The position numbers and the translations under genes are program-made. The notes beneath the pieces were generated by a model. The model saw only the letters and a list, made by a program, of their open reading frames with translations. It did no database searches and was not told the origin of the DNA. A stretch of DNA of 54,178 nucleotides, counting the filler, from Catajapyx aquilonaris (lineage: Eukaryota), in the NCBI GenBank assembly GCA_000934665.2. It is 2 parts of 2 records of this genome, joined end to end, with 100 filler letters (N's around TTAATTAATTAA, not from the genome) between each part and the next. Parts side by side here need not be neighbours in the genome. Positions count along the whole stretch, not along the records: positions 27,141 to 54,178 come from JYFJ02005124.1; 1 more part is not named here. One strand, 5' to 3'. Positions 27,041 to 32,329 of the stretch are shown here, piece after piece. Position 1 is the stretch's first letter. Every line of letters begins with the position of its first letter.

Positions 27041-27140
27041 NNNNNNNNNNNNNNNNNNNNNNNNNNNNNNNNNNNNNNNNNNNNTTAATTAATTAANNNN
27101 NNNNNNNNNNNNNNNNNNNNNNNNNNNNNNNNNNNNNNNN
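27041..27140. other. Assembly gap / artificial linker N44-TTAATTAATTAA-N44
   Basis: Exactly 100 bp with a central six-frame stop-codon linker. Confidence 0.95.
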
Positions 27141-27288: not shown

Positions 27289-28614
27289 ATGATGGGGGCT
27301 TTAGGAGTGGTTGTCCGTCGGGCCATGTCGACGGCGGCTCCCAAGCGGTTCTTCAGACGCGTAGGGGTGGTGAGCAGCGGTGGTCCTCATCCGCCCAGCT
27401 ACGAGATCACCCTGGACCAGAAGAAGCTGAAGACACCGGGCGGGAAGGTGTTCAAGGTGCCCACGGAGGGACTGGCCCAGGCGGTGGCAGCAGAGTGGGA
27501 CATGCAGGAGGAGGTCATACACATGCCCTCCATGCACCTGGTACGGGGTCAAATCTGTGGATTGTTGCAGTATGAGTCCAACAATCAGCGGCCTTGTTGT
27601 TACATGCGGCTCATTCTGTGGACATGTGCCACAACGTGTTACTTTCACTAGTGACATGAACCACTTTGGCCTTCTAGGTCGCATTGTTGGAGGCGTACCG
27701 TACCATTTAACCTACTCGGTTGTCAATTTCAGACAGGTTTGTGCAACACCGCTATGGACAACTACAGAAGAAGGGAGGAGCTAATCAACCACCTCCTCGA
27801 GTACTTGCGGACCGATACACTCACCTGTAGGATGGAGGTAAAGTGCACGCTGCTTCAATGCTCATCTGTGCTGGGCTGAAATCGTCATGTATGGACATTT
27901 CCACGTGTAATACCCACTGTGATGTTGACTGGGTGCATCACCAAATATATGACGTACTTTAGCGTAGCATAGTAGCATCAGTGACTTGAGGATCAATGGG
28001 CTATTTCTGGAAGGAATTTGGTAGGATATATACCCTGCCAGCTATTACAGAAATGCAACTTCCCTTTAATGTTACAGGTTCAAAACCCCAAACATTTCAA
28101 TTAAGGCACATGCGTCATGCATGTTTAATAAGCAGCCATGGTAATCAGCAGTTCTAAGCCACAACATTTCTCCTAGGAGCCTCCTGAACTGGCAGAGTTC
28201 CAAGCCGAGCACTGGGATCCAGTCCTGTCCTGGTTCAATTCCACCTTCGATGCCACTTTAACTCCTTCAGTCGAGTTAGTGGGTCCTACTGTGTCCGAGT
28301 CAACTGTACGCTCCGTGCAACGCCACCTCACTTCCTATCCAACATGGTCTCTGCACGGCGTCAGCTATGGAGTGGAGAGCACAAAGTCTTTTGTCCTGGT
28401 TTTGGCAGCCCTTGAACGCCACCTGACTGTGGAAGAGGCAGTACGTTTGTGCCGCTTGGAGGTTGAGTTCCAGACCCGCCAGTGGGGATCTGTTCCTTGG
28501 GCTCACGATCTTGAAGAGCAGGACACGAGGGCCAGGCTCGCAGCCGCAGTCTTGTTTGTTCACTTCTCCAGCAATTTGGAGGCCGTCAGGGTAAAAAAGG
28601 TCCGTCCTCAGTGA
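27289..28614 (+). CDS. ATPAF2: Mitochondrial F1 ATP synthase assembly factor 2 (ATP12); exons 27289-27540, 27733-27837, 28177-28614
   Basis: PKRFFRRV, YEITLDQKKLKTP, LAQAVAAEWD, MHL|TGLCNTAMD, LEYLRTDT, WDPVLSWF, CRLEVEFQTRQWGSVPWAHD; GT-AG junctions in frame. Confidence 0.95.
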
Positions 28615-29158
28615 AGCTGGCAAGCACGAATCATCACAAGCTGCAGGAGGATGAACACAGGAGACATCACCTCCGAATACTCCAGGGTGCTCTGTCCACT
28701 CAGCTTGCAGCACAGGAGGAACTTGAACACAAACAAGACCACCAGCACTGCTGCACTCCAGGCTGCACGCAAGAGGGCGTTCTTGTATGTACCTGAGGAG
28801 TGAGTGTTTATTTATATGTAAATGATTGAAATTAATAATAAATAGGCTTTAGAATCTATTCTGTCTCATTGCTATAACTACTGCGACAAATTACTGAATT
28901 TATTCAACACACCAACGTAAGTAGCCTGCAGTACCCACCTTCTAAGTACGTTCGGATGAAGACAATGACACAGAAGTAGGCGTTGAGTGCATCACTGACA
29001 AACAGTGGGGTGAAAATGGCCCACCAGGAAGCAAGCAGTGTTCCCTGGCATTTGAGAGCCAGCAGCACGGAAAAGATGAACATGCACACCAGCAGGACCC
29101 ATATCTCGAAAAGGGTCAGTCCAAGCCAGCGCACCAGTTCCTTAAGTGTGAAAAACAT
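28608..29158 (-). CDS. TMEM203: Transmembrane protein 203 (134 aa); exons 29158-28939 and 28792-28608
   Basis: MFFTLKELVRWLGLTLFEIW...SWWAIFTPLFVSDALNAYF...FVFKFLLCCKL...SPVFILLQLVMIRACQLH* matches TMEM203 end to end. Confidence 0.93.
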
Positions 29159-29202
29159 GGCCTACCCTTACAACTACTAGTCTCTTTCTTACAGCTTGCG
29201 CA

Positions 29203-29834
29203 CTACCGCCTGGAACCTCCACCGGTTCCAATTCCAGGAGACACAAGTGCCACACGGTACACTTTAATGTGCACTGCTGAGTTATTCCGAATCTGCGTCT
29301 CTGCGTCCAGGGAGTCCTGTTGTGGCTCTAGGTCATCTAATTGGTGCAGAGTACTGTGTTAGTATTGCAAACATCGTGGCTCCTGTAGTATACTTACCAA
29401 CAATTTCAACAGTTGAGGTGTTGGTTGAAAGTTCTAATGTGCCTAAGTACTGCTTGTCCAGCTGAAGAGACAGGTTGATGGCACGAGCTACAGCAGCACC
29501 CAACCCATGTATGTACAGCTCTGTTTCACCTGAGTCTAGAAGTTTACGGCAACGTTCAAGTTGGGCCTAAAATAGTCCGAGGGAGACGATTACCGTACCT
29601 ATTAGTGCCATAAAAACGATTCAATTTGAAACCCTGGTATACCTTGAAGTTGGTCTTGTTGGTAACATAAATATCGTTGTGCCTCCTAGGTAGTCTGGGT
29701 GGAAGTCGCTTCCTGAGAACAAATTCCTCTGGGTCTAGCCTGATCCTCTCCCTCTTGGCAGGGGGCTCGCAGCTGTGGTCCGACTGGGAACCCACCCCTC
29801 CAGTCGCTCCCACCGCAGAAGCACCCTCCGCCAT
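29203..29834 (-). CDS. POP7: RNase P/MRP subunit Rpp20 (Alba fold); exons 29834-29643, 29566-29398, 29336-29203
   Basis: LRKRLPPRLPRRHNDIYVTNKTNFK|AQLERCRKLLD...IHGLGAAVARAINLSLQL...TSTVEIV|DDLEP...RNNSAVHIKVYR. Confidence 0.95.
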
Positions 29835-30417
29835 ACGCCTCCAACTAGCTGCCTCAACTCAACCCTGCAATAAGAAACATCTTATAAACATGGTGCTCGG
29901 TCGTCACACTTGGTGTTAAGTCGTCACACTTGGTGCAGTATAAAGCTGGAAAAAGATAATCACCCCCATATTTGATGACTTTGTGAACTTGGGAAATTTC
30001 CAAATTCATCATTTAACATCATTAGCAATCAACGAAGGTGACATTAGGTCAAGGCAAAATCCATCCACGAATTCCATTTTAATCTCATTAATTTGCTGCT
30101 TCTCCGCTACCATATGGACCACTAGCGAACCTTAATCAATGCAGTTTTTGCAGCCAAAATATGCCACATCTTCTGCCTCTCTCTACCAAAGCGAACTTTA
30201 ATAATCCGGCTGGTGTCGAGACGCACTCCGCCGCTACAAAGGCTGCTTGGTGCATTACTTCCTATGTATACTACCAAGCAGTACTAGTACCTTGCCAAAC
30301 AGTTTGCTAACCCAGCATGACCTTTTGACCTGCCCCTCACCTCTTTAGTGCACCACGCTTCACAACAACTGCTGCACATTTCACAAGGAAAAAAAATTGC
30401 GGATTATGACAGTCAGT

Positions 30418-30870
30418 CAGAGTTGCCAGATCGTGAGATCGAGTAAATGGTACCAACCCTCGAAATAAATGGTACTTTTCCGGAAAAGATGGTACATTTC
30501 AAAAATGGCGTAATTAATGTTAATTAAAGACAATTTAAATTTAAATAGCCGTAATTAAAAAGTTAACCATGATAAAGTAGTCGAAACCGGGGAAAGTAGT
30601 AAAGTACTGGCGGGGAGGGAAAAGCGCGCCGCAGGCGAAAATTTTCTTTTGGTTCAAGGTCACACAAGTTTTGGTGAATGTAACCTACTGGGAGATTTGA
30701 ATAGGTGTATATGTGGTTAAATTGGTATCACGCTTTTCATGGAAGTGGAATTGCAGAGTAACATTGGACTTGACAAAATAATGGTACTTTTTGCGTACCA
30801 TTATGGTACATGGTACGGAACCCGAAATTATGGTATGAATACCATAATTATGGTACATCTGGTAACACTG
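30418..30870. mobile_element. hAT-type MITE
   Basis: 8-bp TSD CAGTCAGT (30410-30417, 30871-30878); TIR CAGAGTTGCCAGAT / ATCTGGTAACACTG; repeated ATGGTAC subterminal motif. Confidence 0.9.
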
Positions 30871-30951
30871 CAGTCAGTTGTCAGTGAAGCGGCGTTGCCT
30901 GACAGCCTTCCTGCGTTGCCAGATGGGCGCGGACGAATCGATTTATGGCTC

Positions 30952-31392
30952 CTAATTCTGGTTCCCTCCCTGGCTCCTCTCCAGCATGAAGGCCTCGTGC
31001 TTCCCCTTCAGAAGGTCCAGAAGGATCCCCCTGAGGGAGGTCAACCCCTGTCGCACCTGGTCCTCCTGCCCCGACCGCAGCACCCTTCCCAACTCCCTGA
31101 TCTGCCCCTGGTCCAGGTTGATGACGTCCGCCCCCCTGATCCCTTCCCAGAGTTCCTTTCCTTTCCTGGCCACGTCCCCTGGCCTGTCCCTCAGGAGTCT
31201 GGAGCACTCCACCAGCGCCTTCAGAGTCTCCACGTCCTGGTCAGGCTCCAACTCCTGGTCCTGGTCCGGATCCACTTGGCGGTCCAGATACTGGCTAAAG
31301 TCCCTCAGGCCATCCGGATCGGACAGAAGGTCCGAGAGAGAGCAGGTCCATTGCCTGGAGGTGGAGGCAGGACCGCAGAGGGGGTCCAGCAT
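30952..31392 (-). CDS. 146-aa stand-alone RGS-domain-like protein, single coding exon
   Basis: WTCSLSDLLSDPDGLRDFSQYL...ETLKALVEC...KGKELW...VINLD...ILLDLLKGKHEAFM follows the RGS helix pattern; GC-rich, coding-like composition. Confidence 0.7.
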   Translation of the reverse strand: MLDPLCGPASTSRQWTCSLSDLLSDPDGLRDFSQYLDRQVDPDQDQELEPDQDVETLKALVECSRLLRDRPGDVARKGKELWEGIRGADVINLDQGQIRELGRVLRSGQEDQVRQGLTSLRGILLDLLKGKHEAFMLERSQGGNQN

Positions 31393-32329
31393 GGCGCATG
31401 GTGCCTACAGGGCGCCGCGTCGAAGACTGGCAGCAATGGCTGCGCAGGCGTGTGTTGCCCGATGCGCTCTGTTCGGTTGCCAAGACGAGTGAGGGCACAC
31501 ACCTGCAACCTTGGATCTGTTCCCAGCACCTGTCACAGTATTGTTCTGGTTCGGTGCCTCTCTATTCACACATCATGTACAGGGTGTGCTGTCAGCGGCT
31601 ATAGGGTGCGGCCCCCGTCAGGAGATAAAAAATGCAACGAAATTGACTGGCCAAGATATTGAACATCCACTTACCATGAATTGGCTTTGAAGAGTGGTCA
31701 AGATTGGGTCAAGAAGTACCCTGTATAAAACGGAGCGGAAATTATCAAAAGAGATAAGATCATGGCCCAGTATAAACAGCTGGCTTACTTTTTGGGTCAC
31801 AGCAAGTCAAGTGGCGGAGTGCTTGCAACAATGGCGTTCTCACGTCATTCCGGATTTGCGATGTGGCGTTAATTGCATTGTATGTAAATGGTGTATTTGT
31901 GGGAAAAACACCTTTCTCTACCAGTGCAGCTGAAAATGGTTCTACTCGAACTGTTCTGTCACACCCGGTCACACCCCTTCTTGAAGAGTTCAGTAGCCGG
32001 AACGAATTGTGATGCTACAGAGTCATATCCGGCAGCGAATATAGACGGTGTTGAGCAATTATCTGGAGAGGACCATGCAATATGGGGCAGATTGCACTGG
32101 AACTATTATTAGATATGCTTTCAGGCAGGGAGTAGTGTGTGTTGCGGTGTGTGCAGGATAACAGGGCGCCTCTTCTTTCATCCTTGAATATGAGGCATTT
32201 TACATGGTGCATTTATACGTGTTTTCTAGACCTTTTTGCTCTTGTTTAGTTATTTTAAACCCGCAAATGACCGGAGTCTCAATGTTTCAGCCTCATTGAG
32301 CAATACCATTGGGAGGGGAAAAATCGACA

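Follow-up and report, generated by a model that had tools for sequence, protein, structure and literature searches.

Interlocking stop codons of convergent ATPAF2-like and TMEM203-like genes beside a POP7/Rpp20-TMEM203 unit in Catajapyx aquilonaris

Within a 54,178-nt window of the Catajapyx aquilonaris genome (the whole stretch of DNA that was analyzed), an ATPAF2-like gene on the plus strand and a TMEM203-like gene on the minus strand meet tail to tail and share the last 7 nt of their coding sequences. This is a genuine gene overlap in which both stop codons are ancestral. The locus adds a new case to a known class, that of 3′ convergent cis-natural antisense (cis-NAT) pairs with a small bidirectional coding overlap, and it abuts a dicistronic-type unit of a known kind, POP7/Rpp20-TMEM203. 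Taken as a whole, the arrangement is probably a lineage-specific overlap that yields ∼0.75 kb of complementary RNA and has been tolerated rather than selected. The features of the locus, with the evidence for each in parentheses, are as follows.

27289..27540, plus strand: ATPAF2-like exon 1, 84 codons, ATG at 27289 (open reading frame and sequence; contig joint at the 3′ side)
27541-27732, plus strand: ATPAF2-like intron 1, GT..AG (contig joint)
27733..27837, plus strand: ATPAF2-like exon 2, 35 codons (sub-threshold Pfam ATP12 match; contig joints on both flanks)
27838-28176, plus strand: ATPAF2-like intron 2, GT..AG (contig joint)
28124..28129, minus strand: ATTAAA, candidate poly(A) signal of the POP7-TMEM203 RNA, in ATPAF2 intron 2 (hexamer scan)
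28177..28614, plus strand: ATPAF2-like last exon (exon 3), 145 codons plus the stop TGA at 28612-28614 (ATP12 structures, relatives, unbroken contig cover)
28608..28614, both strands: 7-nt stretch common to the two coding sequences, TCAGTGA on the plus strand (direct reading)
28608..28792, minus strand: TMEM203-like exon 2, stop TGA at 28610-28608 (translation, relatives, conserved end, contig cover)
28793..28938, minus strand: TMEM203-like intron, 146 nt, GT..AG on the minus strand (contig joins across it)
28837..28842, plus strand: AATAAA, candidate ATPAF2 poly(A) signal, inside the TMEM203 intron (hexamer scan, sequence)
28939..29158, minus strand: TMEM203-like exon 1, ATG at 29158 (translation; tblastn to 39 loci)
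29159..29202, minus strand: spacer of 44 nt from the POP7 stop to the TMEM203 start (spliced reading; contig unbroken over 28937-29336)
29203..29336, minus strand: part of the last coding exon of the POP7/Rpp20-like gene, stop TAG at 29205-29203 (joint at 29337-29397; tblastn matches in relatives)
29398..29566, minus strand: POP7/Rpp20-like middle exon (Pfam Rpp20 and Alba, contig joints)
29643..29864, minus strand: POP7/Rpp20-like first coding exon, ATG at 29834-29832 (spliced reading, contig joints)
30291..30319, minus strand: POP7/Rpp20-like upstream noncoding exon, at the contig end (joint at 29865-30290, CT..AC)

Read directly, the plus strand ends the ATPAF2-like frame with CCT CAG TGA, its final base at 28614, and the reverse complement ends the TMEM203-like frame with CTT CAC TGA, its final base at 28608. 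The two TGA stops are separated by one base, and the overlap is made up of the two stops and one codon from each gene. Opposite-strand coding sequences with bases in common, the arrangement that FlyBase treats as a class of its own, are present at 28608-28614. The first-pass annotation had described these interlocking stops, and a reading of both strands found its coordinates to be exact.

The ATP12 family is an assembly factor of the mitochondrial F1-ATPase. Spliced together, the ATPAF2-like exons give 264 codons (84 + 35 + 145). The Pfam ATP12 profile (PF07542) was scanned against exons 2 and 3 of the window singly and against 15 aligned relatives: all 15 relatives matched, exon 2 reached 24.9 bits (E = 2.5e-5), under the 27-bit cut-off, and exon 3 alone had no match. 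Exon 3 did match the solved ATP12 structures 2r6i, 2p4x, and 2zd2 (E of 3e-6 to 6e-5), and a full HMMER search with this exon returned 1072 relatives at E ≤ 1e-3, with a top identity of 46%. The C-terminal end falls ∼1 to 4 residues from the ends of the 15 aligned relatives. Judged from its sequence, the ATPAF2-like gene is an intact ATP12 member, full length to the family C terminus.

The spliced TMEM203-like product has 134 amino acids, as against 134 to 137 in most relatives. With exon 2 as the query, 162 relatives were found at E ≤ 1e-3. Those named at the source share 62 to 81% identity with the exon and are mostly labeled "transmembrane protein 203"; the matches so named are all from insects (a dragonfly, a cricket, stick insects, and many Hymenoptera and Lepidoptera), and an identity of 95% is reached by a relative with no source name. 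By these matches, the animal is arthropod-like. Pfam PF10269 (Tmemb_185A) was matched by 12 of 16 aligned members, the 60-amino-acid piece from the window giving no match by itself. Twelve of 15 aligned relatives end in ...ACQLH and two in ...ACHLH or ...ACHIH, with one extra C-terminal residue in two of these 14; the record of the 15th (P0118) is partial and cut off earlier. By similarity and length, this minus-strand gene is TMEM203. TMEM203 is described as a protein with four transmembrane helices that localizes to the endoplasmic reticulum (ER) and functions in calcium storage (PMC4440627). Because the ATPAF2-like and TMEM203-like proteins both stop at family-typical C termini, the overlap is not due to a C-terminal extension or to a missed last exon.

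The locus was present in a single public run (X1), which is kept as contigs and whose kind is not on record. One X1 contig of 1,736 nt matches 27344-30319 with 0 differing letters and 0 gaps while skipping six introns, two of them GT..AG (plus strand) and four CT..AC, i.e., minus-strand introns (28793-28938, 29337-29397, 29567-29642, and 29865-30290). As introns have been removed, the X1 material is RNA derived. The contig confirms every splice site in the ATPAF2, TMEM203, and POP7 models and is unbroken over 28175-28790, which covers the last exons of ATPAF2 and TMEM203, and again over 28937-29336, which covers TMEM203 exon 1 and the last exon of POP7. RNA from both strands was present in one sample, and the assembled RNA is gapless at the junction. 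The locus has the geometry of a cis-NAT, with opposite strands, facing 3′ ends, and a contig that crosses the junction with plus- and minus-sense introns on its flanks. The X1 contigs were possibly built from 31-letter words, as we assume; if so, the two RNA populations have at least about that many bases in common. Contigs reveal neither strand nor transcript ends, and they drop rare variants, so that the zero count of differing letters is uninformative on A-to-I editing.

A third gene precedes TMEM203 on the minus strand. Its middle portion (29333-29566, minus strand) scores 30.3 bits against Pfam Rpp20 (PF12328; cut-off, 24.6) and 25.8 bits against Alba (cut-off, 25), and on these profile matches the gene is POP7/Rpp20. 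POP7 and TMEM203 thus form two intact same-strand open reading frames (ORFs) across the 44-nt spacer, which is the layout of a dicistronic unit. The X1 contig spans both ORFs unbroken, a two-gene contig being no proof of one molecule. We infer that the two share one mRNA. How the second ORF might be reached is hinted at, weakly, by the scarcity of upstream start codons: POP7 has no internal Met, and only 3 ATGs occur in the 536 nt leading up to the TMEM203 start, compared with a mean of 8.5 in 5,000 shuffles (2.2% of which had 3 or fewer), which may point to leaky scanning. The first-pass annotation had spoken of three coupled genes; the adjacency stands, with POP7 lying 44 nt upstream of TMEM203 on its strand, but the link is that of a conserved dicistronic-type unit in which POP7 comes first, not one of antisense.

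As a comparison set, we used 39 loci from metagenomes, each encoding a TMEM203 relative (49 to 77% identity over TMEM203 exon 2). As the set contains near duplicates (L023-L032, L006-L009, L003-L005, and L016-L017), the number of independent lineages is nearer a dozen. In 28 of the 39 loci, or 28 of the 30 that can be evaluated, a same-strand POP7 precedes TMEM203: nine of the 11 loci lacking it have 168 nt or less of upstream flank, and two (L036 and L039) have flank with no match. The spacer is 44 nt or shorter in 22 of the 28 loci, and in several relatives both ORFs sit on intron-free contigs (e.g., L002, L010, and L014). This wide recurrence suggests that the POP7-TMEM203 unit is old. Its traces can be found in public gene predictions, where Timema cristinae and Ladona fulva entries (P0041 and P0118) fuse POP7 and TMEM203 into one protein and two JGI TMEM203 proteins carry the name RPP20.

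A literature search for a POP7/Rpp20-TMEM203 dicistron found no paper describing it and one FlyBase table row (supplement file 1 of PMC4528330 lay outside the search). The row concerns Rpp20 and CG33932 of Drosophila melanogaster, the latter being presumably the TMEM203 orthologue. FlyBase annotates the pair as dicistronic, with a single nucleotide from stop to start and all transcripts di- or polycistronic (PMC4528330, supplementary file 5). The fly pair resembles the unit studied here in joining Rpp20/POP7 to a small unrelated gene on one strand across a very short spacer. It differs in the spacer itself (1 nt rather than 44 nt), the table giving one span for the pair and no gene order. In the window, the 3′ end of the unit also faces a convergent ATPAF2, a neighbor unseen in the relatives' loci.

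The intact ATPAF2 gene converges on the 3′ end of this dicistronic-type unit, and interlocked coding sequences mean that any ATPAF2 or TMEM203 mRNA that has a 3′ untranslated region (3′UTR) is antisense to the partner gene. We scanned both strands for 14 poly(A)-type hexamer variants. From the ATPAF2 stop to position 29000, the sole match on the plus strand is AATAAA at 28837; on the minus strand, from the TMEM203 stop to 27838, the scan found nothing but two copies of ATTAAA, at 28129 and 28070, and ATPAF2 intron 2 contains both. The first of these lies 478 nt beyond the TMEM203 stop and is followed by a G/U-rich stretch. The nearest hexamer of each gene therefore sits within the last intron of its partner, as the first-pass annotation had noted for the AATAAA, correctly placing it as the nearest to ATPAF2. 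From these positions, the complementary mature RNA is predicted to be ∼0.75 kb long, roughly 28100-28860. The ATPAF2 3′UTR would most likely end near 28860 and be antisense to TMEM203 exon 2, and the POP7-TMEM203 RNA would most likely extend to near 28100, lying antisense to the last ATPAF2 exon over its full length; the extent of the overlap and both 3′ ends follow from the hexamers. The mutual antisense 3′UTRs that had been proposed for the two genes are borne out structurally, by the interlocked coding sequences, the hexamer positions, and the contig across the junction, and are predictions as to where the transcripts end.

The RNA overlap may be far smaller. Noncanonical poly(A) signals soon after the stops would leave a few tens of bases in common and no long duplex, and weaker in-exon signals, if used, could make the RNA overlap much shorter. 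The intronic tails expected under the canonical hexamers (28793 to ∼28860 and ∼28100 to 28176) are missing from the X1 contig, so the hexamer-based ends are unsupported by RNA, and many arthropod mRNAs lack AATAAA or ATTAAA. Yet all 14 hexamer variants are absent from 28615-28836 on the plus strand and from the minus strand for 478 nt after the TMEM203 stop, and the ATTAAA at 28129 has a G/U-rich stretch beyond it. The X1 contigs leave 27905-28122, the TMEM203 intron, and the part of ATPAF2 intron 2 beside exon 3 uncovered, which says nothing on the existence of the predicted tails: short dead-end tails are often trimmed by assemblers, which makes their absence little informative. We regard such a minimal RNA overlap as unlikely.

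If the long complementarity holds, it might be tolerated or it might be a selected regulatory module, in which 3′-end double-stranded RNA (dsRNA) or polymerase collision sets the output of ATPAF2 relative to that of POP7-TMEM203. In support of such a module, overlap between the mature RNAs is unavoidable and both genes are expressed in the only run that contains the locus. Between human and mouse, convergent overlaps are better retained than any other class (Soldà et al. 2008, PMC2330155). Opposite-strand coding overlap is rare in Drosophila, a single such pair being annotated for D. melanogaster (Crosby et al. 2015, PMC4528330), and in Drosophila cell lines, small interfering RNAs (siRNAs) arise from 371 3′ convergent pairs (Wen et al. 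2014, PMC4079977).

The gene order in relatives argues against this. Searched with tblastn, the three ATPAF2 exons of the window had 0 matches in the 39 loci at E ≤ 1e-3 (short chance-level matches appeared at E ≤ 10), and no match at E ≤ 1e-3 was obtained between 150 ATP12 relatives and the same loci. Of these loci, 26 have 500 nt or more of sequence after the TMEM203 stop, a span that in the window holds the whole last exon of ATPAF2. The first-pass annotation had named synteny in related genomes as a check, and this check came out negative, ATPAF2 adjoining TMEM203 in 0 of 39 loci (26 with enough flank) from relatives that are distant ones. Other genes follow TMEM203 there: a same-strand Mis12 ORF in 9 of the 39 (Pfam confirmed in all four scanned), Alg14 in one, PRELI in one, and a convergent C2H2 zinc-finger gene in L033. 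The overlap therefore appears to be lineage specific, which argues against a conserved, selected antisense device. A further point against the module comes from Drosophila, where cis-NAT pairs free of siRNAs equal or outnumber siRNA-making pairs in every expression bin (PMC4079977). With synteny missing, a regulatory role of the overlap is not favored, and we consider a selected module improbable.

Two further candidates were dropped in the course of these comparisons. A match to ATPAF2 exon 3 upstream of POP7 in L006, L007, and L008 (E of ∼0.03, 35% identity, 40 amino acids) was judged to be chance because the 150 ATP12 relatives gave none at E ≤ 1e-3. The idea that ATPAF2 lies inside a longer POP7-TMEM203-Mis12 polycistron was set aside since Mis12 is absent from the window; searches of the window for Mis12, Alg14, and PRELI gave nothing better than an E of 0.4.

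A narrower version of the selected module would be a reciprocal arrangement of intronic poly(A) signals, each in the last intron of the partner, kept by selection so that a duplex of ∼0.75 kb lies over coding exons. If true, an assembly factor of the mitochondrial ATP synthase would have its output coupled to the output of two proteins encoded on one dicistronic RNA, an RNase P/MRP subunit and an ER calcium regulator; we hold this version to be very unlikely. Least credible is an artefact, either a misassembly or a wrong gene model with another last exon: the gap at 27041-27140, in which two runs of 44 N surround the linker TTAATTAATTAA, does lie ∼150 nt upstream of ATPAF2, but the reading is largely refuted by the independent spliced contig, which crosses the junction without a difference or gap, and by two proteins that run full length to conserved C termini inside these exons.

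The overlap most likely originated in a lineage-specific juxtaposition of housekeeping genes with short introns and was most likely tolerated rather than selected. Tolerance by chance is an assumption, such overlaps being rare. Of the overlap classes in human, mouse, and fly, the 3′ convergent one is the most frequent; overlaps between coding sequences are under-represented and selected against, and gene overlaps in general are mostly species specific (PMC2330155). The single fly pair annotated as a "bidirectional region of coding sequence," CG34148/P5CDh2, is likewise an opposite-strand coding overlap (PMC4528330); it involves other genes, and an overlap of only 7 nt belongs to ATPAF2/TMEM203. 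The Drosophila 3′-cis-NAT-siRNA loci are alike in pairing opposite-strand coding genes with facing 3′ ends and, in principle, in offering a possible Dicer-2/AGO2 substrate (PMC4079977). They differ in that the fly overlaps typically lie between 3′UTRs, whereas the 3′UTRs predicted here cover coding exons of the partner and the coding sequences share 7 nt. The production of siRNAs from Drosophila 3′ convergent pairs has been termed inefficient (Wen et al. 2014, PMC4079977), and if both RNAs of the present pair meet in one cell, they would give rise to at most inefficient Dicer-2-type 3′-cis-NAT siRNAs, as in Drosophila.

As opposite-strand coding overlap is rare in well-annotated animal genomes, an RNA-supported case with ancestral stops makes a useful test locus. 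The ATPAF2/TMEM203 pair could reveal any cost or use of long exon-over-exon complementarity between constitutive mRNAs. The locus also holds two annotation traps: gene finders may truncate the convergent pair, and public pipelines have fused the POP7/Rpp20-TMEM203 unit into one protein or mislabeled it.

For context, we scanned 105 of the 115 window ORFs of at least 85 amino acids against Pfam, the 10 left out lying inside this locus. Only scattered genes were found elsewhere in the window, so that the three-gene knot is locally tight and not part of a uniformly compact stretch. The scan placed a GDSL lipase near 5.3 kb, a leucine-rich-repeat (LRR) match near 16-17 kb, an MFS match near 35 kb, Dpy-30 near 43.9 kb, and ankyrin at 44.7-45.9 kb.

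In the window, the TMEM203-like gene lies directly behind a POP7/Rpp20-like gene on the same strand, and the two form a dicistronic-type unit:

29159-29863, minus strand, POP7/Rpp20 and TMEM203 dicistronic-type unit with a 44-nt spacer

The same POP7/Rpp20-TMEM203 unit was also found in 28 of the 39 metagenome loci that encode TMEM203 relatives (all 28 within L001 to L038; the 39 include several near-duplicate sets). Public databases contain fused POP7/Rpp20-TMEM203 predictions (P0041 from Timema cristinae and P0118 from Ladona fulva), and two TMEM203 proteins (P0038 and P0068) are labeled RPP20.

The 164-aa POP7 product (29203-29834, minus strand) has no internal methionine, and the 536 nt from the POP7 start to the TMEM203 start hold only 3 ATGs, compared to a mean of 8.5 in shuffled sequences (3 or fewer in 2.2% of 5,000 shuffles of this stretch). 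Judged from sequence, the scarcity of ATGs and the methionine-free POP7 interior are compatible with leaky scanning to the TMEM203 frame.

Just past the upstream POP7 exon, a G+C-richer stretch (30721-31662) carries long open frames on both strands, none of which had a Pfam match at an E value of ≤1e−4.

The ATPAF2-like gene, which converges on TMEM203, is preceded by a linker:

27041-27140, linker of 44 N, the 12-mer TTAATTAATTAA, and 44 N

The 12-mer places stop codons in each of the six reading frames and is typical of sequences used to link scaffolds or contigs. The ATPAF2 start follows ∼150 nt after the linker, so the ATPAF2 promoter region is incomplete in the window.

In several relatives (L001, L002, L010, L012, L013, L014, L016, L017, and L020), TMEM203 is followed on the same strand by an open reading frame for the kinetochore protein Mis12, with a spacer of ∼30 to 140 nt (by eye, in the loci where it was worked out). 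This arrangement suggests that, in some relatives, POP7, TMEM203, and Mis12 share tricistronic RNAs or have transcripts that overlap tightly. In other relatives, the position of Mis12 is occupied by Alg14 (L019) or PRELI (L037). Mis12 is absent from the window.

In two relatives, the TMEM203 3′ end faces a different convergent neighbor: a C2H2 zinc-finger gene in L033 (2800-3724), ending 187 nt past the TMEM203 stop, and minus-strand open reading frames in L022 (923-1860). The window is therefore not unique in having a convergent neighbor at this end, and the partner differs between loci.
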